NCBI GenBank assembly: GCA_963695335.1
Contig: OY968764.1
Coordinates: 992,001-1,056,000, forward strand
Reading direction: 5' to 3'
Source of the DNA: an uncultured bacterium
GTDB lineage: Bacteria; Babelota; Babeliae; Babelales; Vermiphilaceae
DNA length: 64,000 bases
Shown: positions 5,916-46,945 of the stretch, one piece after another
Numbering within the stretch: position 1 is the first letter of the stretch
How the letters are laid out: each line of letters opens with the position of its first letter
Notes under the pieces: generated by a model
What the model saw: only the letters and a program-made list of their open reading frames with translations
Told to the model about the DNA's origin: nothing
Database searches by the model: none
Position numbers and translations under genes: made by a program

Positions 5916-5934
5916 TACAAGAAACAGTATCTAT

Positions 5935-5968: not shown

Positions 5969-5970
5969 AA

Positions 5971-6031: not shown

Positions 6032-6130
6032 CGCCATTTTTTAACTCCATATAAAACATCAGATAGATTATGGATTATAACTGGTGAATATAATAAGATG
6101 TTCTTTATTAATGATTATTGTTAAAAAGGA

Positions 6131-7180
6131 ATGTCTATGCGGTTGCTCTATTACATCTTCTTTTTTTATGCTTACGCATTACCTGCTACTGAATATATCT
6201 ATCCTGTTGCATCACTCAGCGATGAAAAAACAATATTATATATTCATCAACATTTTTCAACAAACATTGAACTGTTTTCTTACAATACACAAACCCGTCA
6301 AACTGAGCCAATGTTGTGGTCAGTTTTTAATCCGGCAGGGTTACAAATGTTACCAGATAATAGTGGTTTTAGTTTTATTGATAACGGCAGATTGCGCATT
6401 AAATCATTTGATAAACGATCAGCAAAAGCTATTGATTTTGATGATCCTTTATGTGGCATTAACAATTTACATTGGATTGATAATCAGAGTTGTTATTGCA
6501 GTGCACAATATAATAATAACTTTGCGCTTTTTGAATTACATGATGATGGTACATTGCAATGTTTACGTTCAGCAGAAGGGAAGGATTATATGTATCCACA
6601 AAAAATTGATGATCAACTATTCTATATTGAGCGCTGCACTACAAAAAACAGTCTTAATGATTTTCATTACACCATAGCCTCGTGCTCATATCAAAAAAGC
6701 AATTCTGATAATTTAAAGGCAAATCTTGTTGCTGATTTTGGAACAACTCCAATCATATTTTTAACAATGGTCTCTGAAACTGAAGGGTTTGTGGTTGAGC
6801 ATGCACAACAGATAGATAGTGAAAACCCAACAATGCTATTTACGTATCATCAGATTATAAAAGAGGGTGATGCGTGGAACAAAAACATTCTTTTTTCTTT
6901 TTCTATTCCTACTTCTTTATTATTAGATATCCAAGAACGTCTCTATGAATCTATTTTGCCATTGTTACCACGTATTATTAATGAGAAGGTATATTTTGTT
7001 GATTGCGCCAATAATACGGATTATATCCTTGAGCCATATTTTTATAGCCTACAAGATAAAATAGTCCAAAAAATCAACCTTGATCAACACAAAGGACATG
7101 CTTTTGCACCAATGTTATGCAAAAACACGCTGTATTACGGCGGAACCAAGCAGCCGTCTCTTTTTTCTATGTTAACATAA
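6131..7180 (+). CDS. Secreted hypothetical protein, possibly TolB-like beta-propeller
   Basis: 349-aa ORF with aagga RBS, hydrophobic N-terminus and beta-rich PD/W-D-type blade-like motifs. Confidence 0.6.
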   Translation: MSMRLLYYIFFFYAYALPATEYIYPVASLSDEKTILYIHQHFSTNIELFSYNTQTRQTEPMLWSVFNPAGLQMLPDNSGFSFIDNGRLRIKSFDKRSAKAIDFDDPLCGINNLHWIDNQSCYCSAQYNNNFALFELHDDGTLQCLRSAEGKDYMYPQKIDDQLFYIERCTTKNSLNDFHYTIASCSYQKSNSDNLKANLVADFGTTPIIFLTMVSETEGFVVEHAQQIDSENPTMLFTYHQIIKEGDAWNKNILFSFSIPTSLLLDIQERLYESILPLLPRIINEKVYFVDCANNTDYILEPYFYSLQDKIVQKINLDQHKGHAFAPMLCKNTLYYGGTKQPSLFSMLT

Positions 7181-7237
7181 TATCCATTATCAGATTGTAA
7201 ATGTTGTTGATTTTTACCAATGAAAAAAAAGCGGCCT

Positions 7238-7388
7238 GTTACAGAGTTCTCCAATTCAAATTTGAATTGCGTTAATTCATACGCTTTTCTAACTCTTTAA
7301 TACGAGCAAGAAGTTACAGAGTTCTCCAATTCAAATTTGAATTGCGTTAATTCATACGCTTTTCTAACTCTTTAATACGAGCAAGAAG
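7238..7388. repeat. Exact 75-bp-period tandem duplication covering the 3' end of the 7347-12752 gene
   Basis: 7238-7312 is identical to 7313-7387. Confidence 0.95.
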
Positions 7389-12752: not shown

Positions 12753-12861
12753 GTATAACTCCTTTTTTTTAATTCAATAAAAAATTAATGGAGACAAAAA
12801 ACTCTTTAGTTTGTAATAAAAATAAAACAAGGCAATTAAAAAAATAAACAGTTATGTATAA

Positions 12862-12894
12862 AAAAAGGCATTCACTTGCATGAATGCCTTTTTT
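12862..12894 (-). terminator. Rho-independent terminator
   Basis: aaaaaaggcattca-cttgca-tgaatgccttttt. Confidence 0.8.
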
Positions 12895-12914
12895 AGAGAT
12901 ATATGAAGAACTAA

Positions 12915-15371
12915 TTATTCTAAATTCAATGCCGCTGTAGTCATTGCTGCAGCAATACCTCTGAGCATTGCACCAAATTTTTGATTATCAGCTTGAAGAT
13001 CTTGCACAATACCATTTAATTTTTGCACTTCATTGAGAAGTAACATAGGTAATAAATGATAGCGTACAGTGTATGGTGTGCCTTCTTCATCGCGGATAAC
13101 TAATGCAGGGAATACTTGATCAACTTCTTCAGCAATTAAACCATACTGTTTTGTTTCTGTTGCATCGCTATTATACACAAAGGTTACAGGATGCAAGTTG
13201 TATATATTTTCTGAATCAACATAGTCCATATCTTCTATGTTATGTTTGAATCTTTGTGAAGAAACAACCGTTCCTAATTGACCCGCTGCATCAACAAACA
13301 CTGGTATACCAGTACCGCCAACAACACTTGTGAACACACCTTGTAAAAATGCTGCTGTATGAGTAGCAGTTGTACCAATACGTATAATACCACTTTCAGT
13401 TGCAACACCAGGATTTGATATATAAATGTTATCATCACCAACTGTCAAACTCACTCCAGCGTTAAATCCAACAATAACATTCGTATCACCGGTTGCTGCA
13501 AATGCTGCTGCATTGTTTCCTACGAAAACGTTATTGAGTCCTGTTGAACTAAATCCTGCCTGGAATCCAACTGCCACATTACCAGAACCAACTATATTAG
13601 ATGCTAATGTAAAGCCACCAAGCGCGGTATTTTCATTACCTGTTGTGTTTGATGTTAAAGCAAATGCACCCACTGCTACGTTATTTTCTCCAATAGTATT
13701 GCCTGGTAAAGCAAATCCACCAACCGCTACGTTTTCAAAACCTGTTGTGTTTGAAGATAATGCTTGACGTCCAATACCCACGTTTTCAGCACCAGTTGTG
13801 GTAAAATTACCAGCATTTATACCAACAAAGGTGTTATCAGTTCCAAAATTATGAATAAATCTGATACCACCCTTAAGAACGTTACCGATAAGAGGACTTA
13901 TTGAGTTATTCATAAGAAGATTACAACCAACAATCACGTCACACGCACTGATTGTTCCACCAGAGATTTCACCTACTGATAAGTTATCAATAGAAGCATC
14001 TACCGCAGAAAAATTGATAACGCAAAGATTTTCTATGCAATCATTAACAACTAAATCATTAACGGATAATGAATCAATAGAAGCATCAACTGCCGAAAAA
14101 TCGATAACACAAAGACTATCAAGACAGCTTGCAATAATAATGTCACCTACAGACAAATTATCAATCGTTGCATTAACTGCTGATAAATTAATCACACAAA
14201 GATTTTCCATACAACTATTTACAACTAACTCATTAACCGATAACGAACCAATAAATGCATCAGTTGCTGATAGATTAACAACACAAAGACTATCAATACA
14301 ACTTAAAACAATAATCTCTCCTATAGATAAATTATCGATAACAGCATTAACTGCTGATAAATTCTCAACACATAAATTGTCTATACAGCTGTTTACTACT
14401 AATTCATTAACCGATAATGAATTAATAAATGCATCAGTTGCGGATAAGTTAGTAACGCAAAGGTTATCAATACAGCTAAGAACTGTTAGATCTGTAACAG
14501 ACAAGTTAGTGACACAAAGATTTTCCACACAGCTCAATATAATTATATCAGTGACAGTTAAATTATTTACACAAAGATGATCAAGACAACTACCAATAGG
14601 AAAAATAATATCAATAACCGTTAATTCATTCACACAAAGATTATCAATACAACTCAGTACTACTAAATCAGATACCGTTAATGTACCTTCTATAGTAACA
14701 TCTTCTTCAAATTCAACATCATCTTTAAACTTAACTTCATCATAAAACTTAACATCATCTTTAAATTTAACCTTATTCAAAAATTCAACTTTTTGTCTTA
14801 TTTTAATCAACTTACATTGTCTTACAGGGCAACAATGATCAGATTCTGTTGTAAAGCATTGTCTAATAATTCTAGCATCTTCAACAATAGAAGGGTCTCC
14901 TAAAGCTGAAGGTAAATCTAAAGCCTCAATAATTTTTTGTGAATCAACGGTAAGTTGTTCATTAACAACTTTATTAACTACCTCTTCAAGAGATTGAGAA
15001 AGATCTTGCGCTTCTTGAGCATCCATTCTTAAATAATTTTCTTGTAACACAGTTTCAGCGTAACCCAAAACTTCTATAACAAAATCATACAATCCAACCG
15101 AAAAATCTTCTTCAATATTGTTTTTCAATTCATGCACTAAAGATTCTTGATTCTCATCAAATTCACTAATAGCAGACACTACTTTGTATAAATCGCTAAC
15201 ATCTTTCCCGATATAAATATATTTCATACCACTAGCTTCTAACAGCTCACGTAATTCTGTATCTGAAATATACGCTTCATCTTTTGTAATCGCTTGCATG
15301 TGAAGCGAAAAAAACAAAAGTCCAACGTGTAAAAACAGGCGATGGACTCGATTAAACCGAAGATTTTTCAT
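12915..15371 (-). CDS. Secreted fibre/adhesin-like protein with Cys-rich stalk and S74-type chaperone
   Basis: Signal peptide; nine (S/D)CxxxLC units; VSSQRFKH...LHPVTF...YGLIAEEV. Confidence 0.85.
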   Translation of the reverse strand: MKNLRFNRVHRLFLHVGLLFFSLHMQAITKDEAYISDTELRELLEASGMKYIYIGKDVSDLYKVVSAISEFDENQESLVHELKNNIEEDFSVGLYDFVIEVLGYAETVLQENYLRMDAQEAQDLSQSLEEVVNKVVNEQLTVDSQKIIEALDLPSALGDPSIVEDARIIRQCFTTESDHCCPVRQCKLIKIRQKVEFLNKVKFKDDVKFYDEVKFKDDVEFEEDVTIEGTLTVSDLVVLSCIDNLCVNELTVIDIIFPIGSCLDHLCVNNLTVTDIIILSCVENLCVTNLSVTDLTVLSCIDNLCVTNLSATDAFINSLSVNELVVNSCIDNLCVENLSAVNAVIDNLSIGEIIVLSCIDSLCVVNLSATDAFIGSLSVNELVVNSCMENLCVINLSAVNATIDNLSVGDIIIASCLDSLCVIDFSAVDASIDSLSVNDLVVNDCIENLCVINFSAVDASIDNLSVGEISGGTISACDVIVGCNLLMNNSISPLIGNVLKGGIRFIHNFGTDNTFVGINAGNFTTTGAENVGIGRQALSSNTTGFENVAVGGFALPGNTIGENNVAVGAFALTSNTTGNENTALGGFTLASNIVGSGNVAVGFQAGFSSTGLNNVFVGNNAAAFAATGDTNVIVGFNAGVSLTVGDDNIYISNPGVATESGIIRIGTTATHTAAFLQGVFTSVVGGTGIPVFVDAAGQLGTVVSSQRFKHNIEDMDYVDSENIYNLHPVTFVYNSDATETKQYGLIAEEVDQVFPALVIRDEEGTPYTVRYHLLPMLLLNEVQKLNGIVQDLQADNQKFGAMLRGIAAAMTTAALNLE

Positions 15372-16053: not shown

Positions 16054-17592
16054 TTATGTAACTTGTTCTACCAATTCCTTAGTTGATTGCGATAATGGAT
16101 ATTGGTGAATATGTGCTAATTCTGCTGTTTCTATGCAACTATCTTCTAAATCTAAAACAGTGATAACATTATCAGTATCAAGCGTTATTTCATCTGTTGT
16201 TTTTATAACAACATATCCAGTCTCTACACTCTTTGCCAATGCTTTTCTAAAATCATCTAACGTATGAACCTTTTCACCATTAACTTCATTAATCGTATCA
16301 CCATAACGAATGCTTTGCATATGAGCTATTTTTGAATCTGAAAACACGTTAGTTACCACAAGGCGCGATCCATTACCATAAAGATTGGTTAAATAACGTC
16401 GCAATCCACCTCTTTCTTTGCACATATTAATATAGTTAACTGTTAATGGCATAATAATCATACCAGCAAACATTTCATAATCGATTGTTTCATATGCAGG
16501 AAATTTCATCGCTATACTATCATCATCTTCATCATTTTCTTTGCACGCAATGTTCAAAATTAATTCCAGCGCTTCTCCGTTACGATATATTTTTAATATA
16601 ACGTCCGTACCAATTGATTGTTGATGTATATAGGAATCAAACATTATTTTTTCATCATCACATAAAGCTTTTATTTCACCATAATTATCAATCTCATACT
16701 CATCTATGGTACAGATAATATCATTTGCTTCCACTCCCGCACAAGCTGCAGGGCTTGATGATACTACATCACACACCAAACAACCACCTTCTATGGGGCA
16801 ATTAAAATAATCTCTAATCTCTGGGGTTGTAAACGTCCAAATGATACCATTACTTTTAATTTTTAATAATTGGAATTCACGCAATGCCGGTGAGAATGTT
16901 TTAAATATATTAATTGGTGTAGCAAAGTTCGAGTTTTGCGCGTTAATGATAACCGAATTAGCAATGCCAATCACCATCCCATCTCTATTAAAAATAGGAC
17001 CTCCTGAATTTCCTGGATTAATAGGAGCATCTAATTGAAACAAACTATTTAAACGAGCGCTAATCACACCAGCAGTTCCTTTGATTTGATCCGTTTCTAT
17101 TGTGGTACCAGGATACCCTAATGCAAGAACATTTTCCCCGCGTTGAACCATATCAGAATCACCCATCTGCACATACGTAATTTTTCCAACTGTTTTACGA
17201 ACAAGTGCAACTGCTTTTTCATCAAGTTGCAAGAGTGCCACATCATGCTGAGGACATATTCCTACAACATGAGCTTTTAAACGTTGTTTACCTAAAGTGG
17301 GAATGGTTACATACACAGAAAGAGCCTGATCAACCACATGCGAGCAGGTTACAATACAACCATCTTCATTAATAAAAAAACCCGTACCTGTGCTGGTACT
17401 TGTACCACACACAACATACGGGTTAAACCAATTAGTAGCTCTTGAAGTAGAAAAAATATGAACAACAGCATCACGTGTAGCGGCTTGCACCTCTTGCCAT
17501 GCTTGATCAGTGGTGGGTGCTTCTTGTGCGCATGCTATTGAATATATTAATACGCTTAACAATCCTACAAAATACCTTTTTTTACATATCAT
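16054..17592 (-). CDS. HtrA/DegP-like serine protease with PDZ domains
   Basis: Signal peptide; TCSHVV, HDVALL, PGNSGGP catalytic triad; PDZ-like C-terminal half. Confidence 0.9.
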   Translation of the reverse strand: MICKKRYFVGLLSVLIYSIACAQEAPTTDQAWQEVQAATRDAVVHIFSTSRATNWFNPYVVCGTSTSTGTGFFINEDGCIVTCSHVVDQALSVYVTIPTLGKQRLKAHVVGICPQHDVALLQLDEKAVALVRKTVGKITYVQMGDSDMVQRGENVLALGYPGTTIETDQIKGTAGVISARLNSLFQLDAPINPGNSGGPIFNRDGMVIGIANSVIINAQNSNFATPINIFKTFSPALREFQLLKIKSNGIIWTFTTPEIRDYFNCPIEGGCLVCDVVSSSPAACAGVEANDIICTIDEYEIDNYGEIKALCDDEKIMFDSYIHQQSIGTDVILKIYRNGEALELILNIACKENDEDDDSIAMKFPAYETIDYEMFAGMIIMPLTVNYINMCKERGGLRRYLTNLYGNGSRLVVTNVFSDSKIAHMQSIRYGDTINEVNGEKVHTLDDFRKALAKSVETGYVVIKTTDEITLDTDNVITVLDLEDSCIETAELAHIHQYPLSQSTKELVEQVT

Positions 17593-17654
17593 TGTAATAG
17601 CCTCATTAAAATTATTACTTCTTTGATTTTAGAGATTATCCGGAAATCCCAATT

Positions 17655-17799
17655 CCGCTCGTCCTGAGTGTTTTTTTGTCCTCAAAAAAATGTATCGAAG
17701 GATGCGGAATAAACAAAAATATTAGAAAACTCTCTTTTATGTTGCACCCTTCGATACATTTTACTACGTTTCACTTCGTAAAACACTCAGGGCGAGCGG
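17655..17799. repeat. Inverted REP dimer, long variant with internal hairpins
   Basis: ccgctcgtcctgagtg[hairpin]tgtatcgaagga at 17655-17702 and an inverted copy at 17747-17799. Confidence 0.85.
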
Positions 17800-17856
17800 T
17801 GGGAAATAATCGAGTTTTTTAATTTTCGGATAAGTTCTTACTACAATAATGTAACT

Positions 17857-19395
17857 TTATAATAAAGAACTATCAACCTGTGTAATTAATTTTTGAGCAA
17901 ATTCCGATAATGGATATTGATAAACATGAGACAGTTCCACTGTTTCTTTGCAACTATCATATAGCGATAAAACTGTTAAAGCATTATCAGTATTTAAATA
18001 CGTTTCATCGGTAGTTTTTATCGTTATAAAACCAGTTTCTATACTTTTGTATAATACTTTTCTCAATTCATCTAATGTGGTAACGCATTCACCATTAACC
18101 TCATTAATAGTGTCAGCCCAACGAATTGTTTTTATATGTTCAACTTTAGATCCTGAAATAAGATTTGCAATAACAAGGCGTGGTCCATTATCATGAAGAT
18201 TCGTCAAATATCGCGCTAAACCAGGCTTATCTTTAGAATATGCTTTAATATAATTTACTGTTAATGGCATAATAACCATGCCCGCAAACACTTCATAATC
18301 TATTTTTTCATAAGGAGGATATTTTGTACTAATATTATTATCATCCAGTAAATCAATAGTAACAGGAATATCCAATGATACTCCATTACGCCATACACTA
18401 AAATTAACTTCTGCCCCTAAAGGAAGCATCACTATATATTCATAAAATGATATTTTACTACTACCAGGCAAAACAATTATTTCGGCATAATTATCTATAA
18501 AATAACCATTAACCGCAGAAATAATATCCCCTATTCGCAATCCAGCGACATAACCTTTTTTTAAAGGATCAAGATCACATATCAAACAACCATTTACATC
18601 TGTATTACCAAAATAGCTTCTGATTTCCTGATTAGTCGGCTCCCATACCATCCCAAAATCACTATTTATTTTTAATAATTTATGATCATAGAGATCAGAT
18701 AATGATGATTTTAAAACATTAATAGGAACAGCAAAATTAGTACCTTGTGCCTCTTTATTTCCTCCTCTATGAATTCCAATAACCATCCCTTTTTTATTAA
18801 ATACAGGACCACCCGAATTGCCTGGATTCGTTGCAATATCATACTGTAAATATCGATAAAGATGAGCACTTACAACTCCAGAAGTAGCCTTAAGCTCTTT
18901 TGCTGCCAAGGGATATCCCAATGACAAAACTTCTTCTCCGCTTCGTATCTCGTCTGAATCACCTAATTGAAGATATGGTATTTGATTAAATTCTTTATGA
19001 ATTACACTGAGAGACTCTTGCGTAAAGCGTAATAATGCTATGTCACGCTCTGGGCATATCCCGATAACATCAACTTTAAAACGTTGCTTGCCAAATGCTG
19101 CCATAGAAATAAAAACTGCTAATGCATCTTCAACAACATGAGAACATGTTACGATATCGCCAGTGCTGTTAATGATAAAGCCTGTTCCACAGGTATTTTT
19201 AGTGTTATTTACACAATATGGATTAGACCAATTAACATCTCTTGATGTAACAAAAATTTGAACTACTGCATCACGTGCAGCTACTTGAACTTCTTGCCAT
19301 GTTTGATCGGCAATAGCAGATTCCTGCATACATTGCATGGAACAAGAACTGAATACACTCAACAAAATTGCGGCATATATTTTTTTATATAACAT
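17857..19395 (-). CDS. HtrA/DegP-like serine protease with PDZ domains (tandem paralog)
   Basis: TCSHVV, RDIALL, PGNSGGP; colinear with the 16054-17592 protein, both 512 aa. Confidence 0.9.
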   Translation of the reverse strand: MLYKKIYAAILLSVFSSCSMQCMQESAIADQTWQEVQVAARDAVVQIFVTSRDVNWSNPYCVNNTKNTCGTGFIINSTGDIVTCSHVVEDALAVFISMAAFGKQRFKVDVIGICPERDIALLRFTQESLSVIHKEFNQIPYLQLGDSDEIRSGEEVLSLGYPLAAKELKATSGVVSAHLYRYLQYDIATNPGNSGGPVFNKKGMVIGIHRGGNKEAQGTNFAVPINVLKSSLSDLYDHKLLKINSDFGMVWEPTNQEIRSYFGNTDVNGCLICDLDPLKKGYVAGLRIGDIISAVNGYFIDNYAEIIVLPGSSKISFYEYIVMLPLGAEVNFSVWRNGVSLDIPVTIDLLDDNNISTKYPPYEKIDYEVFAGMVIMPLTVNYIKAYSKDKPGLARYLTNLHDNGPRLVIANLISGSKVEHIKTIRWADTINEVNGECVTTLDELRKVLYKSIETGFITIKTTDETYLNTDNALTVLSLYDSCKETVELSHVYQYPLSEFAQKLITQVDSSLL

Positions 19396-25662: not shown

Positions 25663-26166
25663 ATGTACAAACAATTACTCTCTTTACTAATATTTTTTTG
25701 TTTGCAAATATCATGCATGGAAAAGGAATCCAAGTCTGTTTTTGAACAATTAGATAAAGATCGTCTATCCGTTATTACAGGATATTGCAATCTTCAAACA
25801 ATAGGACGATTAAAACAAATTTCTAAGCATCACAACAATATGATCAATATTGATGTGATTTTAAATAATACTACATCAGTTGCGTATTGCGAATTGGGAA
25901 AAAATGAAAAATACGCCGCTTGCACCAAGGCATTAAAACACTATGAACAAGAATATCATACCAACAAAAACCATGCTCAAATATTTAAAAACTTATTAAA
26001 ACATTGTCATCAACGCAGAAAAAAAGAAACACAGGAATTCATAAAATCTCATGGTTTGAGAATGGGACTCTCAAGAAGAGCTCCTTGTAGTCGCTATGAA
26101 TTATGGATAAAAGTTATCAATGAAAACAATCAAGATGAAGCACAATCTATAATATCTAAGTCATAA
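25663..26166 (+). CDS. Secreted protein with F-box-like motif
   Basis: Signal ...LQISC/MEKE; FEQLDKDRLSVITGYCNLQTIGRLKQISKHHN follows F-box spacing. Confidence 0.6.
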   Translation: MYKQLLSLLIFFCLQISCMEKESKSVFEQLDKDRLSVITGYCNLQTIGRLKQISKHHNNMINIDVILNNTTSVAYCELGKNEKYAACTKALKHYEQEYHTNKNHAQIFKNLLKHCHQRRKKETQEFIKSHGLRMGLSRRAPCSRYELWIKVINENNQDEAQSIISKS

Positions 26167-26199
26167 GAAAAGGCCTGCAGTCGCAGGCCCTTCTTTTAT
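26162..26199. terminator. Bidirectional terminator abutting the ileS stop
   Basis: aaaaggcctgc-agtc-gcaggcccttctttt. Confidence 0.8.
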
Positions 26200-29126
26200 C
26201 CGTAAATTATTCTGTGACATCGATTACATAAATCATCAGGATCGCTGCTCAAATCCCACTGCCAACAACGAGGACACTTAACCCCTTGCGCGTGTTCAAC
26301 ACGTGCAAACAGACCTTTTAATTCTGTTTCTTCAAGATTTGTTGCATCTGATGTGATTGTGCATTGCGAAACAATTAAACACTCTTTTAAAAAGCTTTCA
26401 GCGCTTTCACCTTTTACATTCATCATTGCAAAGAAATTGTTTATTGTATCAGCAAAGTCAGCTTGAGGATCAATATATAATGTAATCTGAGCTTCTAATG
26501 AATGCTTAATTAACCCTTTTTCGCGTTGAACTTCAATAGCTTTAAGCAACGCCGAGCGCATATCTTTTAATATCTCCCAAGCATCTTCTTGGCTATGCCT
26601 CAATTCAACTTCTCCCATCTTCTGTGTTGCTGCATAATGTTGACCACGATGATGCAATGGTTGCATATCTTGTGCAGATACACGCTGAGCTAACAACTCC
26701 CAAACATTATGTACAAGAGGAAATTTCTGCAGATGAATTGAATCAGTTTTACCTTTTTGATATTCATCGGAAAGTTGTTCCGCCGTGAATGATAAAATAG
26801 GTGCTATCAATTTAGTCAGTGTATCAAGAATATGTGCACACACTGTTTGCGCAGATCGGCGTTCAAAACCATCTTTCTTTTCTACATACAATCTATCTTT
26901 AACAATATCTAAATAAAATGCACTTAAATTAACTGCGCAGTAACTTCCAAGTAGATGCGACACACGTGTAAAATTATAATTCTCATATGCATGCATAACT
27001 TCCTCATAAATCTCAAAAAGTTCTTGCATCGCATACTGATCAATTGATTTCATTTTTTCTACTACAATTGCATCTTTAGCGATATCAAAATCATTAATAT
27101 TGGAAATAAGAAAGCGGCAGGTGTTGCGAATTTTACGAAACACTTCTTGCACGTTTTTAAGTAATATTTCTGAAACAACTGCGTCACCACTGATTATCAA
27201 TGCTCGCTGCCCACAAACGCAAACCATCTGTACCAAGATGCTCGATCATTTCTTCTGGTGAAACAACATTCCCCAAAGATTTGGACATTTTTCGACCTTG
27301 TTGCATCAACAGTAAACCCATGCGTTACAATTGTTTTCATGCAGGGAGTTTCTTCAATGATCATACTTGTCAGCAAAGAACTTTGAAACCATCCACGATG
27401 TTGATCTTTACCTTCAAGATACATATCTGCAGGATATTGCAACGCAGGATTTTGTTTTAAAACTGCATAATGGCTAATGCCTGAATCAAACCATACATCA
27501 AGAATATCTGTCTCTTTGCGTAAATCCACCAGTTGTGCATGCAGGACATGTTGTAGAAACATTGAGTTCATTCACATGTCACCTTATCCCAATATTCAAT
27601 ACCTTGCTGTGCAACTTTTGTAGCAACTTCATCAATAAATTCTTGATTAATATAGGTATAATCACATGTATTACAAATTAATGCGGTAATTGGCACACCC
27701 CATTCACGCTGCCGAGAAAGACACCACTCCAAACGCCCTTCAATGGTTGCTGCAAAACGGTTATGTGATGCTTCTGGAAGCATGGTAATACTTGAGATAG
27801 CTGCAAGTTGCTTTTTCTTTAAGATCATTTTTTTCTAAATCACAAAACCATTGTTTAGTTGCACGGAAAATTAATCCATTATGACAACGCCAACAATGAG
27901 GATATGAATGCTTGATGCTTGCTTTTAAAAGTAACGTATTGCAATCCATCAGTTTTTGAATGACCCAACCTTGTCCATCCGCAACAGACATTCCAACTAA
28001 TTCCGGAATAGTAATATCTTTGGTATATTTCCCATCAGGACTGATTGGTGAATAAATTTCCAAACCATTTTTTACTCCAACTTCATAATCAATAGGTCCA
28101 ACTCCAGGCGCAGCAATGCACGCATGCAGTACCATCATCAGTCAGTACAGAATCATCAACTAAAACCGGTGTATAAAAATCAGGAATAAATGGATGATGC
28201 AACATATGCATTTAACAAGATCAATTCTTCTGAATTAAATTCTGCAACAATATTATCTGAAATAGTAAGCAATTGAGAAATTGCATCAGCACGCTCTTTA
28301 CCAACAACAATATAATTGTTTTCTGTTTCAAGAATTACATATGTTGTCATTTGGTTTAAGTAAAACCGCTCTATTGAGCGGCAAAGTCCATGGCGTTGTT
28401 GTCCATACTAACAAACTGATTGGTTTATTTTGCAATGTTGGAAACAGTTCTTGAGAAACATCAGATTCTAAGTGTAAACAGCACATACAAAGAAGGATCT
28501 TTACGATCTTGATATTCAATTTCAGCAGATGCAAAAACGGTCTGACATGAAGGGCACCAAGGACGGTTTTATTTTTACGTTCGATATATCCGCGCTCTAC
28601 AAATATCCCAAAAGCATTAAGAGTATGCGCTTCATACCCAGCATCCATGGTCAAATATGGATTATCCCAATCCATTAATACACCAAGTTGCTTAAATTCT
28701 TGTCGTTGCACATCAATCCATTTTTGAGCATATTGCGCGCATGCTTTTTTAAGCGCAGCACCAGTAAAGTTCTGGATTTTCTTTGCTACCTTAAATTCAA
28801 TCGGCAACCCATGGCAATCCCAACCTGGAGTTACTGGCACATGTTTGCCCATCATGCGCTGCGATTTGCAGACAATATCTTTTAAAATTTTATTATAGGC
28901 ATGCCCAATATGAATATGCCCATTGGCATAGGGAGGACCATCATGAAGAATAAATTTTTCTGCACCCTTGTGGGCATTAAAAGAACGTGGTATAAAGATT
29001 TTCATGTTCCCAGCGCTTGAGCATAAGCGCATCATCTTCTTTATGATTGGCACGAATAGGAAAATCGGTATGAGGTAAATTTAGGGTATCTTTAAAACTC
29101 TTTTTCTGATTATTTTGTTCAGCCAT
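26196..29126 (-). pseudogene. ileS: Isoleucine-tRNA ligase broken by many frameshifts (probably sequence errors)
   Basis: [16 protein letters not shown] start; [46 protein letters not shown] in an alternate frame; C-terminal CPRCW..CNRC. Spread over at least five ORF fragments. Confidence 0.93.
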
Positions 29127-33489: not shown

Positions 33490-36489
33490 TTATTCCCGTG
33501 CCAATCGCTCTTGCGCATCATTCACGATTTCTTGTTGAAGCTGTTCTTTTATAATCTGTGTTGATGTTTTTGCACCCGCATCTACAAGAATTTTTCGTTG
33601 TTGTTCAAGCGATCCACCCCACCGGTTTTTTCCTGCTCTATCAAAAGCATCTAAAGGAGTTTCTTGTTTACCATTAAGAATGTTAACATCAGCACCATAT
33701 TGTATTAATAATTTAAGTATATTTTCCCTTAAAAAATTGATGCTAAATTCAAAAATTGGATACGTAAGCTTAGAATTATACAGATAAGCAACATTAGGGT
33801 TAGCTCCATGCTTTAATAAAAATTCTACCATTTTGACATTATTCTCACTTAAAGCAAGACCCAATGGGGTTATATCCTCATACCGCAAATATTTAAAAGG
33901 CGTATCTACAGAAACTCCACTCGAGATCAGCAATTCAATAAGTGCTGCATTATTCAAGCGTATTGCGCAATAAAGCGGCGTAGTAGAAGTTGTATCAATT
34001 GGTTTAATGGTAGCATTTCCAGTAATATCAGCCCCATCAGCAATACATTTTTTTGCTATAAAAATAAGATCAATATTTTTGCGAATCTGTTGATAATATT
34101 CTAACAGCTTTCTCTTCGCCTCATGCTCTTGACTATAACGATCCCGTGCGGCTCTTGAGTCAGCAAAATAGCCCGATGGAGCTCTTGGCCAATCTATACG
34201 GGGTGTAGGCTCAGTTAAAATCATATATAAAAGATCAGCAAAAAACTTTTTTTTGTATGAGACATCGGTAATGCACTCATACAATGTTAATACAAAATTA
34301 GTATTGAACAGAGGAATATTTATAGTCATTTTCAATATATCTTGAATAAATTGTTGTTTTAATAGATCATCAGAAAATTGTGTATATAACTCCTTAATAA
34401 AATCAGTTAATTGTTCATACAATTTTATTCTGAAGCTATCATTTCTAAGGTTTCTAAATACAGTTTTTGCCAATACCACATTAATCAATGTTTGTTTTGA
34501 TACATTATCAGGCAACTCTCGATATAAGTCTTTGATAAAATCAACAGTTTTTTCATCAGACAATTCCGTTAATGCTATATCTAAAGCAGTGCTCCAATAA
34601 CGCACCACCAAATTTTTCAATCTTGTATCTGTACGCCATAAACCTAATATTATTCCACCATTTATCATAGCTGTTGCAACCGGGCCACCTTGCCAATTAA
34701 GTGGCATTTGTTGATATAAACTCAATGCATAATCCAATGCTTCTTGATTGATATTGTTCATACTCATAATTTTCTTAATGACATCAAATCTTTGAGAATC
34801 AGTTTCTGTCGGGAATGCATAAAACAACGATATTGACGGTTGATATTGTGGATAAGTAGAAAAGAGCGCAGATAAATTTGGCTGAATTCTAAATAATGCT
34901 TGCGCCTCTGCATTTATTCTATAATTGTGTGCCAATTCTTCAGGTGTAAATAATGACTTTTGTTGAGCCCCTTGCTTATCTCTCTGTGGAACCTCAAGCC
35001 AACCGTGACCAGGATGAAAACAAAAATCTGCCTGTAATCGTTGACCTGTTTTCCTATTATTTATATTCATAGTAATTTTTGAAAAGGAATTATTACCCGT
35101 TACTATTACTATTGGTCCTGTAAATGTTATTGTTCTTCGTTCATCAGAAAGCATTGTGCCTAATTCACCCAGATTGTGGGCCTTAATTCCAAAAAAATGA
35201 TTTGCTAATGTTACAAAATTTTTTACACTCATGGCAGCATTCAATTCATAATCACCTCTGACATACCCTACTCCTTCAACACCTGAAACCAGATTCATAA
35301 AAGCTTGCCCACATTCTCGTGTATTAATTTTACTTGCGCTACTATACGTAGTATAAAATTGTTTAAAATCATTATTCAGCGAAAAATTTGATGGTAAGAA
35401 TGTCAGATCAAATGATTGTGACGATGGATTGTACAACATAATATTAAGCAAATCTTGGAGTGCCGTTTCAACACAATTTGGAGCAGGACTTTTATCTTTA
35501 TATCCATATGATGATTGAATAACTTTAGGAGCATATAATGATGTACTTCTTTTCTCATTCAACATGGCACTGACAACTAACTCAAAGTGTGTTGTTGCAG
35601 CTTTCTGCAACACTTCTTTTCGAGGAGTAACTTCCCATGCATGGCGCACAACATCATAATCTTTTTGCGTATACGTAGCACTTTCGCGAATAATATATTT
35701 CTTAACAAAAGATTTTAACCTATCAAAAAAAGTCGGCTCTGTTTTTTCTAAACCTTTTTTTTGCTCAGTATAATGCTGCACTGCCTGAGCCACTGGCTCA
35801 TGAGTTTCTACAAACACTTGCATGAATTCACTAAGCCCCGCAAGATAATGTATCATATCGTGATCATTATCAGGAATTGCCTTTGCATACAAAAAACCGA
35901 GTAAAATTCTACGACAACTATCTTTATCATTTTTATATTCATTTTCGATAAGCGTTAACAATTTTTCTATTTTTCCTCTTGGAAAAGGCCTTTTTTCATC
36001 CGTAATTCTTCTGTATTCATCAAGCCACTGATTAATGATATAATCACGCACTTTTTGTTCTTGTAATCTACCCGACTCTAAAGCGCCTATCACAAGACCT
36101 ATTATTTCTGGCGACAATGAATATGCAGCTTTTGATTTGCTTGCCGTTGGCCTGAATTGCGGTCCCTGCTTATAAAAAAGTTCTTGTACAAGTTGTGGCC
36201 CAAAAGCCTCTGATTCCGTTTCATATCTTTTTTGAATTGCACCTGTCTCTAATTCTATCGCCCCAATTACCGGAGAAACCTCCTGTGCTTTTGACGTAAG
36301 CCCTTCATATAATCCTTTAATCTTTTCAGGAGCATAAATTGTACGTTTTTGCTGAATCCCAGTTTTCACTGGTGTTGTTGTAGTAGTAAATACCGGTCTC
36401 TTAGAAGTTTGTTTTAATCGCATTCCCTGTAATGATACAGGTATAATAAACAGACTGAAAAGAATCAACAAAACATTAGTTTTCTTCAC
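33490..36489 (-). CDS. 999-aa secreted ankyrin-repeat protein
   Basis: GTG start after agggggtt RBS; signal peptide; C-terminal TPLYCAI, TPLGLAL, LLKHGANPN, YGADVN..ETPLD ankyrin repeats. Confidence 0.85.
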   Translation of the reverse strand: MKKTNVLLILFSLFIIPVSLQGMRLKQTSKRPVFTTTTTPVKTGIQQKRTIYAPEKIKGLYEGLTSKAQEVSPVIGAIELETGAIQKRYETESEAFGPQLVQELFYKQGPQFRPTASKSKAAYSLSPEIIGLVIGALESGRLQEQKVRDYIINQWLDEYRRITDEKRPFPRGKIEKLLTLIENEYKNDKDSCRRILLGFLYAKAIPDNDHDMIHYLAGLSEFMQVFVETHEPVAQAVQHYTEQKKGLEKTEPTFFDRLKSFVKKYIIRESATYTQKDYDVVRHAWEVTPRKEVLQKAATTHFELVVSAMLNEKRSTSLYAPKVIQSSYGYKDKSPAPNCVETALQDLLNIMLYNPSSQSFDLTFLPSNFSLNNDFKQFYTTYSSASKINTRECGQAFMNLVSGVEGVGYVRGDYELNAAMSVKNFVTLANHFFGIKAHNLGELGTMLSDERRTITFTGPIVIVTGNNSFSKITMNINNRKTGQRLQADFCFHPGHGWLEVPQRDKQGAQQKSLFTPEELAHNYRINAEAQALFRIQPNLSALFSTYPQYQPSISLFYAFPTETDSQRFDVIKKIMSMNNINQEALDYALSLYQQMPLNWQGGPVATAMINGGIILGLWRTDTRLKNLVVRYWSTALDIALTELSDEKTVDFIKDLYRELPDNVSKQTLINVVLAKTVFRNLRNDSFRIKLYEQLTDFIKELYTQFSDDLLKQQFIQDILKMTINIPLFNTNFVLTLYECITDVSYKKKFFADLLYMILTEPTPRIDWPRAPSGYFADSRAARDRYSQEHEAKRKLLEYYQQIRKNIDLIFIAKKCIADGADITGNATIKPIDTTSTTPLYCAIRLNNAALIELLISSGVSVDTPFKYLRYEDITPLGLALSENNVKMVEFLLKHGANPNVAYLYNSKLTYPIFEFSINFLRENILKLLIQYGADVNILNGKQETPLDAFDRAGKNRWGGSLEQQRKILVDAGAKTSTQIIKEQLQQEIVNDAQERLARE

Positions 36490-36624
36490 GCCAACCCCCT
36501 ATTTATTTCACAACCAAACGCATCATCATTTTCAATTATAAAATAAACAAGTCGAAAAAAACAACAAAAAAAAGCCCCCCTTTATGCTTTGCACATAAGA
36601 AGGGCCTATGTATGTAACAATAAT

Positions 36625-37659
36625 TTATTCTCTATGGCTCTCATATTCATAAGCATATGAACGGTTCAAATCAACAATCATATCTGCCCGTTTTTTTGCT
36701 TCCATTGGAGTCATCGTCTTTTTTGCTACCAAATTTTTTGTCACATCAGGATGATTCTCTAATAAAAATTTATTACGAGCTATTTTTACTTGAGCATCTG
36801 ATGCACTTTCTGGCAAACCAAGTATTTTTTTTGTTTGAGATCCTTTTATTGAAGATGTAGAAGACGATTGCTGCTGTCCAGACTTTTGATACTGTTGTTG
36901 TTTCCATTGTTGATACTGCTGCTGTCTAGACTGTTGATATTGCTGTTGATACTGTTGTTGCTTCCATTGCTCTTGTTGTTGCTGTTGCTGTTGCTCTTGT
37001 TGATACCACTGTTTTTTTTCCCGATCCTTTTTGAAGCGTTCTATACGTTCGTTAAGAGAAAAAAGAAAAGGATATTCCTGCATTATTGTATTGTAATCTA
37101 TATTTCCACGCATACTATCTATCTTATGAATATAATTAATAAGCGCATCAAGAAATCTACTTCTTTCAGTGTCTTTGTTTTCTTCAAGCCATATAAAACA
37201 TCTATTCAAAAGCGCCATAGCGTATATATAAATATCAGTTTTATATCCTAAAAGGGATTGTAAATTAAAAGATCTCATTTCACTGATCAATTTCTCCAAA
37301 GCTTTATCTTTTTCTTGTTTTTCATAATATTTACTACATATTATTTTTTCCCAGCCATCTAAAAGATTTCTAAAAGGCAAAAGTGTCGAATCTTTTCGAT
37401 TATAATCATAATAAGCTTGAGTAAATGGAATAAGTGCAGTCAAAGATCGCGCACTAGGTGAAACATACTTCCTCCAACTAACATCCCCAGACTTTTCAAA
37501 TGCTACTCTTATTCTCACACCAGTCAGGCTCCGCTGAAATGAGGGCATCGTCCAAGCTCTTTTAGGTACATTTCTGGCTTTAGTCAACATACCATGCAAC
37601 GGAAATAAACTACTCAATACCATCAAAAAAGTTAATAAGCGTCTATTTAAAGTTGTCAT
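36625..37659 (-). CDS. Secreted protein with polyglutamine tract and C-terminal J-domain
   Basis: KILGLPESASDAQVKIARNKFLLENHPD...DLNRSY J-domain with HPD; Q-rich linker. Confidence 0.8.
   Translation of the reverse strand: MTTLNRRLLTFLMVLSSLFPLHGMLTKARNVPKRAWTMPSFQRSLTGVRIRVAFEKSGDVSWRKYVSPSARSLTALIPFTQAYYDYNRKDSTLLPFRNLLDGWEKIICSKYYEKQEKDKALEKLISEMRSFNLQSLLGYKTDIYIYAMALLNRCFIWLEENKDTERSRFLDALINYIHKIDSMRGNIDYNTIMQEYPFLFSLNERIERFKKDREKKQWYQQEQQQQQQQEQWKQQQYQQQYQQSRQQQYQQWKQQQYQKSGQQQSSSTSSIKGSQTKKILGLPESASDAQVKIARNKFLLENHPDVTKNLVAKKTMTPMEAKKRADMIVDLNRSYAYEYESHRE
36868..37010 (-). repeat. CAA/CAG-rich polyglutamine-coding tract
   Basis: Encodes YQQEQQQQQQQEQWKQQQYQQQYQQSRQQQYQQWKQQQYQKSGQQQ. 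Confidence 0.9.
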
Positions 37660-38438
37660 AACTGTCCTCCTCCTCTTTTTTGCACATATTGCTCATATAC
37701 TTTACTAACTTTTTCCACCTCAGATAATTTAGCTTTCAATTTCTGTGTAGATATATTTTTCATTGTTGCGTGAGCAATGAGTTGATTCAAATAATCCTGA
37801 TGGTTTTGCATATACCTTTTATAATGCTCATCCACCACATAAGCAGGCGCATCAACAGGTAAGCTAAAAGCAGTTTGCAAGATTATCGGCAATCCACTCA
37901 CTTGATGACTTGTAACATATTGCTGATGTTCTTTTTTCAACCACGTAATAGTTTTATCAATTACTACGTCTTTACTATCTAAAAAAAAATTATGCATAAA
38001 GTTTTCTTTATCCTCAAGCTCCATTACTTGTAACTCTTCAAAAGGCATTTTCACAAGATGCTGTGTTTCTTGCCTATATTTTTTAATCTCAGAAAACATA
38101 TATATTAATTGATTATATGCTTTAGTAATAACATTTAATAACCCGTTACGATCTGCTAATTTTTCTTTCATCAATTCATAATGATATCTAATATCCAATG
38201 GAGTACTATTATAACCAAGGCCTAATACCTTTAAACATTTTTCAAACAACACTGGCTCAGTAACTATTTTGTACTCAACACCAGTATCCTGGGTCAAATC
38301 TCTTGCTTCATTCTGAATATCAAAAATGAATGATTTGAGAAACGGATATTCTCCCACGAATGGCTCCATAGCATAAACTGTTGCCAAGCTAGCCATTGCA
38401 ACCAAGCTTACTGAGAAAAAAAATCTTAACTTTTTCAT
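37656..38438 (-). CDS. Secreted protein with degenerate J-domain-like segments
   Basis: Signal ...TVYA/MEPF; KVLGLGYNSTPLDIRYHY and FSLPVDAPAYVVDEHYKRYMQNHQD. Confidence 0.7.
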   Translation of the reverse strand: MKKLRFFFSVSLVAMASLATVYAMEPFVGEYPFLKSFIFDIQNEARDLTQDTGVEYKIVTEPVLFEKCLKVLGLGYNSTPLDIRYHYELMKEKLADRNGLLNVITKAYNQLIYMFSEIKKYRQETQHLVKMPFEELQVMELEDKENFMHNFFLDSKDVVIDKTITWLKKEHQQYVTSHQVSGLPIILQTAFSLPVDAPAYVVDEHYKRYMQNHQDYLNQLIAHATMKNISTQKLKAKLSEVEKVSKVYEQYVQKRGGGQL

Positions 38439-39286: not shown

Positions 39287-40213
39287 TTACACATCTAACA
39301 AATTACTCATCTTACGCTCAGGAGATGCTTCCAGACGCTTCAACCGTTCAATATCACCCAAATATAGTTGCGTTGTTGTTGGTGCAGTATGACGCATTGC
39401 AAGTTGTACTTCATACAACGATGCTCCTGCCTGCATAGAAAGTACACCAAAGGTATGCCGTAAACTATGCGCGGTAATACGCTTACTATCAAGTCCTGCA
39501 GCACGTAACCGACGTTTAATAATTCGAGACAAAGAAAAAATTGTTAATTTTTTTCCATAATTCCGATCACTTAATGAAATAAAAATGGGATCTTTTTCAC
39601 TTCTAATAACACGCGCTTGCAAATAATCATGCAGTGAAACCAATGCCTGAGGCGTTAATAATACAAATTCATCTTTACTTGCACGTCCTTTACCATGAAT
39701 CCACAAAAGCATTTCTCCCCGTTGCTCATACATATCTTCTAATATTGCTGATGCAATCTCTTTAAGCCGCAAACCTGTGCGTACTAAAATATTAATTAAT
39801 GCAAAATCACGTTTGCCTTGCAATGATGAACAATCTATTGAAGCAAATAATTTCTTAAGTGCATCAATCGATAGTGATTCTTTCTGGTGACTTTTTGCAA
39901 ACTTTTTTATTCCTTTAACACCACGAGAAACATTTGGATACAGTTGAGAATCTTCTGTCCACAAAAAAAAGCGCCGTACAACAACTATGTACATCGCTTT
40001 TGTATACGAACTTAACCCTTTTGTATCAAGCCAAAATTTATATGATAAAATTGTTTCCCGTTTTGGTTCTGTTACTTTTTTTTCTGTACACCAACGTACA
40101 AATTGCGTCATTGCATTAAGATATGTAGTACGCGAATTGAGTGAAATATCTTGTGCAGCTATAAAAGGATGAATAAACTCATCCATATTAAATTGATGAT
40201 TTTTAATATCCAT
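39287..40213 (-). CDS. Tyrosine recombinase/integrase (XerC/D-like)
   Basis: RTGLRLKE, GKGRASK, HSLRHT, MRH..PTTTQLY; catalytic residue set looks intact. Confidence 0.92.
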   Translation of the reverse strand: MDIKNHQFNMDEFIHPFIAAQDISLNSRTTYLNAMTQFVRWCTEKKVTEPKRETILSYKFWLDTKGLSSYTKAMYIVVVRRFFLWTEDSQLYPNVSRGVKGIKKFAKSHQKESLSIDALKKLFASIDCSSLQGKRDFALINILVRTGLRLKEIASAILEDMYEQRGEMLLWIHGKGRASKDEFVLLTPQALVSLHDYLQARVIRSEKDPIFISLSDRNYGKKLTIFSLSRIIKRRLRAAGLDSKRITAHSLRHTFGVLSMQAGASLYEVQLAMRHTAPTTTQLYLGDIERLKRLEASPERKMSNLLDV

Positions 40214-40321: not shown

Positions 40322-40726
40322 ATGAAAAAAATAAACTATTTCATCATTTTTTTATGCTCTTTTGTATCACAAACAGTATCTATATATGCTATGGAAAGAC
40401 AGAATTGTAAATCCCCACATCAAATTCTTACAGAAAATCTATTAGACATGCACATCAAACTGCAAATACCTATCTCTCTTATACATCAGTCAACTATAAT
40501 CAGTTACCCATGTTATATATATGGCGAACGTATAGAACCAAACATACAACTCAATCCGCAAAATAGTCTGTATGAATGCCCCTTATGCAATCGCAGTTTT
40601 ACTCAAAAAAAATTAATCTTGCATATAAAAGCTACCAACATCAAACCCCTATACAATGTCCCATTGAATGGATGTGATTATGCAGAGATAGATGATGCAT
40701 ATTTTTTAGAATGGATCAATCAATGA
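40322..40726 (+). CDS. Secreted protein with one degenerate C2H2-like finger
   Basis: Signal ...SIYA/MERQ; YECPLCNRSFTQKKLILHIK; stop overlaps next start (ATGA). Confidence 0.65.
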   Translation: MKKINYFIIFLCSFVSQTVSIYAMERQNCKSPHQILTENLLDMHIKLQIPISLIHQSTIISYPCYIYGERIEPNIQLNPQNSLYECPLCNRSFTQKKLILHIKATNIKPLYNVPLNGCDYAEIDDAYFLEWINQ

Positions 40727-41406
40727 AAAACAATAGATTAATCAGACCATTTTTTTTATTATTACTTTTTGTATCACTCCAGCACAATCGTATAAACACA
40801 ATGCAAATAGATACGATAAATAATGTACAAAAAAAATATATATGTCTTTATTGCCCCAAAGGATTTAATCAAAAAGGTCATGTCCTAGAACATGAACGCA
40901 CACATACTGGTGAAAAGCCATTTCCATGCACAAAATGCCCCAAACGATTTACTCAAAAAAATCAACTCACAAAACACGAACAAATGCATCATGAAATGCC
41001 ATATGCATGCACAAAATGTACGAGACGTTTTGCTCAACAAAACGATCTGATTGAACACGAATCTATACACTTTAAAGAAAAACCATTTAGTTGCACTACT
41101 TGTAAAAAAAGTTTTACGAACAAGAGCAATCTCACAGTGCACGAATGGACACATACTGGCGAAAGATCATTTCCATGTATATGGTGTGACAAAAGTTTTA
41201 CTCAGAAAGGCCATCTCACAAAACATATACAAAAATTACACCCTAACAAAAAACCATACACCTGCATTATATGTCATGAAAGCTTTTCTCTCAAAGCTCT
41301 ACTTACTGCCCACAAAAAAAGCCACGTTAAATCTAACTCTGTATATAAACCAATAGAACTTTTATTTGAAAGCCATGATCATGGATATATGTTACATAAC
41401 AGTTAA
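40723..41406 (+). CDS. Secreted eukaryotic-type tandem C2H2 zinc-finger protein (six fingers)
   Basis: CxxC-x12-HxxxH repeats with HTGEKPF and HTGERSF linkers; N-terminal signal peptide. Confidence 0.92.
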   Translation: MKNNRLIRPFFLLLLFVSLQHNRINTMQIDTINNVQKKYICLYCPKGFNQKGHVLEHERTHTGEKPFPCTKCPKRFTQKNQLTKHEQMHHEMPYACTKCTRRFAQQNDLIEHESIHFKEKPFSCTTCKKSFTNKSNLTVHEWTHTGERSFPCIWCDKSFTQKGHLTKHIQKLHPNKKPYTCIICHESFSLKALLTAHKKSHVKSNSVYKPIELLFESHDHGYMLHNS

Positions 41407-46495: not shown

Positions 46496-46945
46496 ATGGC
46501 ACTCAAAAAAACTGCAAAACGTAAACCAACTGCAAAAAAAGCCACACCAAAGCGCAAAGTAACAAAAAAAGTTACTGCAAAAAAATCTGTTGCTAAAAAA
46601 GTAGTAAAAAAAGCTGTTACTAAGAAAGCAAAACCTGCTGTTAAAAAAGCTGCTCCAAAACGTAAAGTTGCTAAGAAAGCAAAACCTGCAGCCAAAAAAG
46701 CAAAACCGGCTGCAAAACCTAAAAAACGAGTTGCAAAAAAAAGCAGCGTAAAACCTGCAGCCAAAGCTAGAAAATACAGTCCTTTAGCAGGAAAAGAAGT
46801 AGAAAAAGAGATGCACAAATTTAAAGAAGGAACTGCTAAATCAGGTAAAGCTGGAACACCGGTAGAATCACGTGAACAGGCAATTGCAATTGGTTTATCA
46901 GAAGCGCGTAAAAAAGGTGAAAAAGTTCCAAAAAAACGTAAATAA
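46496..46945 (+). CDS. Histone H1-like Lys/Ala-rich protein with DUF6496-like C-terminus
   Basis: aaggag RBS; KKAKPAAKK repeats; EMHKFKEG..KSG..VESREQAIAIGLSEARKKG. Confidence 0.85.
   Translation: MALKKTAKRKPTAKKATPKRKVTKKVTAKKSVAKKVVKKAVTKKAKPAVKKAAPKRKVAKKAKPAAKKAKPAAKPKKRVAKKSSVKPAAKARKYSPLAGKEVEKEMHKFKEGTAKSGKAGTPVESREQAIAIGLSEARKKGEKVPKKRK

Follow-up and report, generated by a model that had tools for sequence, protein, structure and literature searches.

A presequence-like module behind Sec signal peptides suggests a two-step route from a Babelota bacterium to host mitochondria

We analysed a 64,000-nucleotide stretch of DNA from an uncultured bacterium of the Babelota (contig OY968764.1, positions 992,001 to 1,056,000), hereafter the window, which corresponds to G000:C1:992001-1056000 in the genome that we denote G000. 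The source contig is single, comprises 1.37 Mb and has 35.7% GC. Two adjacent genes on the minus strand of the window, ORF A and ORF B, encode an ankyrin-repeat protein and a divergent J-domain protein, and in both a predicted signal peptide is followed directly by a methionine and a basic stretch free of acidic residues. An earlier note on this DNA had proposed that these stretches are mitochondrial presequences concealed by the signal peptide. Here, we weigh this proposal against the comparison of homologues and genome-wide statistics.

A signal peptide, a methionine and a basic stretch in two neighbouring genes

The features of the two genes are as follows (positions are those of the window; a slash marks a cut site).

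33490..36489, minus strand: ORF A, 999 aa; GTG start at 36489, AGGGGG upstream
36424..36489, minus strand: predicted Sec signal peptide of ORF A with a signal peptidase I (SPase I) site, residues 1-22, ending ...VSLQG; c-region profile score 14.2
36340..36423, minus strand: presequence-like module of ORF A, Met23-Thr50; acid-free, 3 Arg and 4 Lys; Arg49 at -2 of the domain start; at its end, the predicted site for mitochondrial processing peptidase (MPP), T50/I51
34690..36339, minus strand: conserved unnamed domain of ORF A, residues 51-600; likely Cys/His enzyme; no match in Pfam, NCBIfam or among Protein Data Bank (PDB) folds
35473-35475, minus strand: Cys339 of ORF A, invariant
35005-35007, minus strand: His495 of ORF A, near-invariant
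33652..33996, minus strand: ankyrin repeats of ORF A, about residues 832-946; Pfam Ank/Ank_2 (832-900), NCBIfam partial matches far under cut-offs
36625..37659, minus strand: ORF B, 344 aa; ATG start at 37659, GGAGGAGG upstream
37591..37659, minus strand: predicted signal peptide of ORF B, residues 1-23, ending ...FPLHG, then Met24 (37590)
37498..37590, minus strand: presequence-like stretch of ORF B, Met24-Phe54; acid-free, 5 Arg and 2 Lys; candidate cut sites KR-A/W (common to the homologue P0012) and QR-S/L (not common)
36868..37005, minus strand: Gln-rich linker of ORF B, by sequence; shorter in homologues
36655..36828, minus strand: C-terminal divergent J-domain of ORF B, HPD intact; Pfam DnaJ E 0.002, under cut-off

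As judged by our own heuristic and a profile, both signal peptides possess a basic n-region, a hydrophobic h-region, a small residue at -1 and a true upstream start. The methionine at the first position after the predicted signal peptide (+1 Met) is Met23 at 36423 in ORF A. Counted from the +1 Met, the acid-free runs extend over 32 (ORF A) and 31 residues (ORF B), with a net charge of +7, and the first 30 residues contain R3 K4 S+T9 and R5 K2 S+T5, respectively. The presequence-like stretches proper span 28 and 31 residues, neither of them with Asp or Glu, and become N-terminal only once the profile-predicted SPase cleavage has occurred. Flanking genes encode signal peptides without such a basic stretch: of the nine signal-plus-Met proteins that the window yielded, ORF A and ORF B alone passed a presequence-like filter.

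Both genes were thus found where the earlier note had placed them on the minus strand, with post-signal N-termini that are R/K/S/T-rich and acid-free over ~30 residues and that include the KRTIY (ORF A) and QRSL (ORF B) motifs. Its description of these motifs as R-2/R-3-like sites fared unevenly: KRTIY is conserved in the ORF A family, and QRSL is absent from the nearest homologue of ORF B, whereas an upstream KR-x-W is shared. As to its domain labels, Pfam supports the ankyrin repeats, and the J-domain is divergent, retaining the HPD but scoring 18.7 bits where the cut-off is 27.8.

An optional module with a fixed arginine in the ORF A family

Within the phylum, 65 of 261 genomes contain a match to the ORF A domain. 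As a homologue set we used the best 150 of 346 representatives at E up to 0.001; among the resulting 152 proteins, 139 match the N-terminal subdomain; a gap-free anchor near the domain start was obtained for 99, and the other 53 were dropped. The anchoring profile starts at residue 53, downstream of Arg49, and forms were labelled by the gap from the hydrophobic core to the domain start, without using the Arg.

In short forms (19/99 rows; gap 0-8), the signal is joined directly to the domain, and none carries an Arg at positions -3 to -1. Extended forms (54/99 rows; gap 15-58) have a basic extension between signal and domain, with an Arg in the same interval in 50 rows and exactly at -2 in 41. 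A hydrophobic signal is missing from 26 rows, 25 of which have the Arg (24 at -2); P0103, among these 26, is visibly a mislabelled short form. Overall, Arg occupies -2 in 65 of the 80 extended rows, with or without signal, vs 0 of the 19 short rows. The family thus contains an optional module of variable length, conserved composition and an Arg fixed at -2. Inspecting the 17 profile-called short forms placed the predicted SPase site within -3 to +5 of the domain start, and exactly there in 6; a cut after the residue following the Arg would therefore yield the same N-terminus. The AlphaFold2 model of ORF A is ordered from residue 51, its first ten residues having a pLDDT of 92.

The extensions (43 rows) measure 23-56 aa and contain 12.1% Arg, 7.4% Lys and 1.3% Asp plus Glu, with 29 of them acid-free. 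Compared with that of ORF A in 7 pairs, they are 17-35% identical, and the respective domains 38-76%. Helical amphipathicity at 100 degrees over the first 15 residues was elevated in extensions (0.53 vs 0.44, p 0.005; 24 rows) and in signal-less rows (0.49 vs 0.44, p 0.03; 27 rows), and at 140 or 170 degrees no value for the extensions was significant. The furin-type pattern R-x-x-R, with an Arg three places upstream, occurred in none of the rows checked. Collectively, these traits match presequence features and the R-2 rule as given in the available parts of the published accounts (PMC7723863, PMC6769257, PMC4585086). Seven of the eight homologues aligned to ORF A have a signal peptide, and P0007 starts at the Met. 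In a FastTree tree, short and extended forms are interleaved, with 13 changes among the three states. Sec is described as paying a cost when extra arginines immediately follow a signal peptide (PMC5468347, bioRxiv 10.1101/592543, both as far as available); their retention therefore implies selection, while the same cost constitutes an obstacle to export. It is this family comparison, rather than composition, that is the main evidence for a predicted bipartite address in ORF A. A search of the Atlas with ORF A residues 23-82 offered a weak lead only: 28 of 30 matches were all-eukaryote clusters with mitochondrial-carrier labels (scores 0.90-0.91), at 162-168 shared features, under the guide of 170, and with no control fragment.

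Twenty rows without a hydrophobic core form one clade (support 99), in which one cluster member is named as a protein of a Gammaproteobacteria metagenome-assembled genome. At L192 (41% GC), the one locus of the 20 that was read in DNA, the start is closely preceded by an in-frame stop, and the basic stretch of ~60 residues is therefore the real N-terminus. The module hence persists without a Sec signal, as one would predict for an address that the host reads. The neighbours of this gene on its Gammaproteobacteria-labelled contig (9051-9977 and 11535-12689) are mitochondrial-carrier-family and GDA1/CD39 genes.

The +1 Met is widespread and the basic class a minority

Our hydropathy heuristic called signal-like N-termini in 667 of the 1309 ORFs of G000. 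In 275 of these, the hydrophobic core is followed by a small residue and then Met, with Glu next in 125; the c-region consensus before the +1 Met is (L/I/T/V)-x-(A/S/C/G), a (-3,-1) SPase I pattern. Of 201 upstream starts, 124 lie behind a ribosome-binding-like motif, but the motif stands before just 6 of the 201 +1 Met codons; for Met codons deep inside genes, the count is 56 of 908. The +1 Met is therefore not a second start, and alternative initiation at this codon was rejected on the same counts. Elsewhere in the phylum (2 Mb sampled from 11 other genomes), the signal-plus-Met layout recurred in 168 of 1735 ORFs and in all 11 genomes. The feature is not confined to this pair of genes: the layout exists genome- and phylum-wide, and 19 of 228 signal-plus-Met proteins of G000 pass the presequence-like class filter. 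So do 33 of the 768 proteins in which a signal peptide is not followed by the Met.

The earlier note had argued from composition, which does not suffice alone. A crude composition filter was passed by 6 of 275 signal-plus-Met proteins and by 20 of 642 non-exported N-termini and, because it fails to separate them, composition alone proves little. Among 60 proteins whose second residue is non-acidic, 21 have acid-free runs of at least 17 residues, an excess over the 8.4 expected (p 4e-5). In the basic acid-free class of G000, R-x-(F/Y/L/I) occurred in 7 of 16 proteins vs 3.3 in shuffles (p 0.02) and, at a looser profile threshold, in 10 of 19 vs 4.3 (p 0.002); K-x-hydrophobic showed no excess comparable to that of Arg (11/19 vs 9.8). 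The basic acid-free class is genuine but a minority, and the genome-level tests are modest.

In most +1 Met proteins, Glu, Asp, Gln or Asn follows the Met (169 of 275 cases in G000 and 127 of 168 in the other genomes). Small residues are rare in this position (13/228 and 13/168, respectively, vs 509/1814 non-exported N-termini). Examples with an acidic or amide residue within the window are 25663-26166, 37656-38438 and 40322-40726. In eukaryotes, N-termini of the Met-Glu/Asp/Gln/Asn type keep their Met and are acetylated by NatB; it is possible that such starts mimic stable host proteins.

Presequence-like starts were also seen at other loci. A cluster in G000 (L044, G000:C1:737341-743784) encodes five small orphan proteins with a signal, Met-Leu and sites such as IRSFYT, IRSFST and LRSFCT; three of the five share similar Asn/Glu-rich repeats after the leader, and no Pfam match exceeded the cut-off. 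In other genomes, leaders of this kind follow signal plus Met at L068:12864-13647 (G252), L096:1413-2754 (G254) and L132:2290-4426 (G055), with the sites RRHSS, QKRSF and VRSVA.

ORF B homologues and further cargoes

ORF B has two close homologues (P0012, P0013) and a distant one (P0161). The close pair retains the signal, Met-Leu-Thr and the basic stretch. P0012 has KR-x-W like ORF B and lacks QRSL, P0013 has the site IRSYS, and P0161 the sites RMLSSRNIS and QKRLY; the cut site of ORF B itself is ambiguous between KR-x-W and QRSL. The HPD is invariant in 3/3 proteins of the family, and P0161 carries PF00226. The C-terminal J-domain with NHPD resembles that of Pam18/Tim14; such an identity is not supported for ORF B, as a PDB profile search returned generic DnaJ only, with no Pam18 among 12 matches.

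Unrelated cargoes share a site of the (Q)KR-x-hydrophobic type. A second exported Gln-rich J-protein of G000 (L043, G000:C1:688126-689466; Pfam 37 bits) has a long basic leader ending in QKRMYST, and its homologue carries QKRRYST, both with acids upstream of the site. One further cargo family displays QKRGSF, QKRNF and TRSFS; in another one, close homologues have Met plus extension and the distant L177 and L179 have neither. A crotonase of G195 (L052:1222-2241), near mycobacterial and mitochondrial enoyl-CoA hydratases, combines a signal, the Met and ~45 extra residues that include acids. In the G000 copy (G000:C1:521281-522138), the extension is absent and the gene is interrupted by a stop; signal-peptide enoyl-CoA hydratases were detected in 2 of 61 genomes searched. 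Pfam names few of 24 candidates, and cargo function therefore gives little support.

The ORF A cargo is a domain without a PDB fold match

AlphaFold2 modelled residues 51-600 of ORF A with a pLDDT of 94, and the Cys/His part alone with 96. Cys339 (116/116) starts a helix and His495 (111/114) a strand, while Glu341 and Glu415 are near-invariant. A Cys at a helix start together with a His at a strand start is a papain-like pattern, and the model suggests a papain-like hydrolase or transferase. Foldseek against the PDB matched neither the whole domain nor the Cys/His part, Pfam and NCBIfam contained no match for residues 51-600, a PDB sequence search with ORF A gave ankyrin only among the matches listed, and an Atlas search of the domain produced nothing usable. 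The sole significant structural match was an uncharacterised Yasminevirus protein (E 1e-7, TM 0.25), and no relatives were found in the viral contigs or plasmids searched. The domain represents a widespread fold-orphan family of candidate Cys/His effectors that is also found in a Gammaproteobacteria metagenome-assembled genome and a giant virus.

Genome context

G000 encodes two secretins, two type II secretion F genes, one SPase I and two ADP/ATP translocase matches. TatC was not found in this genome (94% complete), and Tat export of the proteins was rejected on this ground. In the available parts of published work, gspD is present as two copies in Dependentiae (PMC4776705); type II is the only secretion system found in Babela, alongside translocases, signal-peptide ankyrins and lineage-specific J-proteins (PMC4378268); and 44% signal peptides are reported for a Dependentiae isolate, a parasite that gets wrapped by the host mitochondrion (PMC6561590). 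The gene content of G000, together with its size, its GC and the signal-like N-termini of about half of its ORFs, matches these descriptions, from which we infer a member of the Dependentiae (Babelota) and, likely, a protist parasite. With type II machinery genes present, ORF A and ORF B are candidate substrates only.

A proposed two-step route and its alternatives

We consider it probable, judging from sequence, that Sec export and SPase cleavage unmask a presequence, which would permit import by host TOM/TIM23 and a cut by MPP. Initially, Sec would export the protein, and SPase I, cutting at the predicted site before the +1 Met, would create an N-terminus of eukaryotic style. The protein might then cross the outer and vacuole membranes by type II secretion or in vesicles. 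The exposed basic stretch would be imported by TOM/TIM23 of the host, and MPP would cut two residues after the conserved Arg. In the matrix, ORF A may act as a Cys/His enzyme with ankyrin repeats, and ORF B as a J-protein that engages mitochondrial Hsp70. The similar sites in unrelated cargoes, the secretion, SPase I and translocase genes of G000 and the mitochondrial wrapping of a Dependentiae isolate (PMC6561590) speak in favour of this route. We regard a bipartite address as likely for ORF A, where the earlier note's proposal is well backed by comparison within the family; for ORF B, with three homologues and QRSL not conserved, it is weaker and the chances appear evenly poised.

Several observations weigh against this route. 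Type II secretion exports folded proteins, and TOM/TIM23 import needs unfolding. Individually, neither peptide is significantly amphipathic (p 0.24 for ORF A, 0.19 for ORF B), and a Thr/Pro run lies inside the stretch of ORF A. The Tom20 motif is not enriched in extensions (10/24 vs 9.5 expected), and signal-bearing extensions show no Arg-to-Lys shift, contrary to what the Sec cost predicts. By profile call, the +1 Met is present in 24 of 43 extended homologues, so some lack it. The homologues are kin and furnish 5 independent pairs only (3.2 agreeing, 0 opposing, p 0.25), and a single one of the 20 signal-less genes was checked in DNA. On the genomic scale, the shifted control R-x-x-hydrophobic is raised as well in G000 (p 0.05 and 0.03), a slight excess of R-x-hydrophobic is seen in non-exported N-termini (39/92 vs 31.8, p 0.045), and in the other genomes the class comprises 7 of 168 proteins with the motif in 3/7, which is not significant.

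The main alternative is a propeptide. In this case the extension, basic and disordered, would hold the cargo in an inactive or unfolded state until a bacterial protease, or one of the host cytosol or vacuole, removes it at Arg or Lys-Arg and frees the N-terminus that the domain needs. Dibasic sites usable by other proteases are indeed common, in 13/21 and 17/24 Arg-2 rows—a further point against mitochondrial import—and the predicted cut falls at the boundary of a domain that resembles a Cys/His enzyme, in a register that the SPase sites fix to a few residues only (-3 to +5). Yet 19 homologues do without an extension, the extensions lack sequence conservation, one Arg is enough in 8/21 rows and no row has the furin-type Arg; moreover, unrelated cargoes including J-proteins share the site, and neither the near-absence of acids nor the 100-degree amphipathicity would be expected. 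We therefore deem a propeptide unlikely. The stretch might also be a generic basic linker, membrane-binding patch or secretion-sorting signal whose mitochondrial look arises by chance in an AT-rich, Lys-rich proteome. Such a chance resemblance would accommodate both the crude-filter counts and the signal-peptide proteins without Met that pass the class filter, but it leaves the Arg at -2 (65/80 vs 0/19) and the bimodal gap unexplained, Lys shows no such motif excess in G000, and a compact domain modelled with high confidence follows the stretch in ORF A. This makes it decidedly improbable.

The stretch might further direct the protein to another host compartment that reads similar tags—plastid, hydrogenosome or mitosome, nucleus or nucleolus—and the Thr-rich stretch of ORF A speaks in favour of this. 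A nuclear signal, however, need not be N-terminal or cleavable, and the enrichment in Arg and the R-2 site point to mitochondria rather than plastids. In composition, transit peptides resemble presequences according to the available accounts (PMC7723863, PMC4585086), but the known hosts of Dependentiae, as far as described, are heterotrophic protists (PMC12172432), and we rate this reading as highly improbable. Lastly, the +1 Met could serve as a second start giving a cytoplasmic isoform, with the upstream signal peptide being incidental, and databases do begin ORF A at this Met (P0003, 977 aa), as do some homologue records. The ribosome-binding motif counts, the hydrophobic signal kept in homologues and the (-3,-1) SPase I pattern before the Met reduce its probability to next to nothing.

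Other features of the window

Two genes at 40322-41406 (plus strand), next to a phage-type integrase (39287-40213), encode signal-peptide proteins with eukaryote-type C2H2 zinc fingers, which are candidate host-nucleus effectors. Four long proteins (786-1801 aa) at 92-15371, arranged in convergent pairs, each have a C-terminal Peptidase_S74 intramolecular-chaperone domain. Trypsin-like serine proteases with PDZ domains, two in tandem and 512 aa each, are encoded at 16054-19395 (minus strand), and a Lys/Ala-rich histone H1-like protein with DUF6496 at 46496-46945 (plus strand). At 26196-29053 (minus strand), a gene that we take from its motifs to be isoleucyl-tRNA synthetase-like is split into at least 5 short ORFs in different frames, frameshifted by assembly errors or decay. 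A search for RNA families in the window found none.

Relation to known systems and biological meaning

In complex plastids and apicoplasts, a signal peptide masks an organelle transit tag until it is cleaved, both parts being eukaryotic and serving the ER-to-plastid route of one cell. In the arrangement proposed here, by contrast, the signal peptide belongs to a bacterium, and a different organism would read the organelle tag. The closest bacterial likeness is Ats-1 of Anaplasma phagocytophilum, a proven matrix effector whose cleavable N-terminal presequence mediates TOM-receptor-dependent import, with a matrix cut proposed two residues after an Arg of its own (PMC2824752, as far as available). 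The signal-less clade of the ORF A family has the Ats-1 layout. Translation of Ats-1, a type IV substrate, begins with the presequence itself, whereas in ORF A and ORF B the stretch opens with an internal Met behind a cleavable Sec signal. Eukaryotic presequences processed by MPP and Icp55 resemble the extensions in being 20-60 residues long, Arg-rich and nearly acid-free, in family-level amphipathicity and in the Arg at -2, as the available accounts describe them (PMC7723863, PMC6769257, PMC4585086). The extensions differ in being encoded by a bacterium, predicted to be exposed only by SPase, often rich in Lys, Gln, Thr or Pro, and not enriched in the Tom20 motif. Coxiella Mce proteins illustrate that intracellular bacteria send proteins to mitochondria, and MceB and MceC need a free N-terminus (PMC7950127); Dependentiae possess numerous signal-peptide ankyrin proteins as well as lineage-specific J-proteins (PMC6561590, PMC4378268). 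In their available portions, these Coxiella and Dependentiae descriptions contain neither a +1 Met nor a post-signal presequence, and the sole mitochondrial candidate that they name for Dependentiae is mitofilin-like.

Neither a presequence placed after a Sec signal nor the +1 Met turned up in the titles and abstract openings searched or in the available parts of four Dependentiae papers (most subscription journals, and supplements such as the Babela and Chromulinavorax tables, lay outside this scope). A two-step route from bacterium to host mitochondrion is thus likely undescribed, as a proposal drawn from sequence. The layout is missed by standard predictors and gene callers because they read the first signal only or place the start at the inner Met.

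For the mitochondrial wrapping of the Dependentiae isolate, the available text names no mechanism beyond the mitofilin-like candidate (PMC6561590). A sequence rule now yields testable candidates, namely the 19 proteins of G000 that pass the filter. If the proposal is true, it would constitute a matrix route that needs no type III or type IV injector, with a Sec signal masking a host organelle tag until cleavage, and it would provide a reason for the frequent +1 Met among exported proteins of the phylum. More broadly, SPase may serve as an N-terminus editor, an idea that we find plausible if slightly on the doubtful side: hundreds of exported proteins would start with a eukaryote-style Met, most of them continuing with Glu, Asp, Gln or Asn like stable host cytosolic proteins, and the subset with a true presequence—new Cys/His enzymes, J-proteins and a crotonase—would form a matrix effector set able to remodel the mitochondrion of the host, with one and the same enzyme family moving between compartments as it gains or loses the module.

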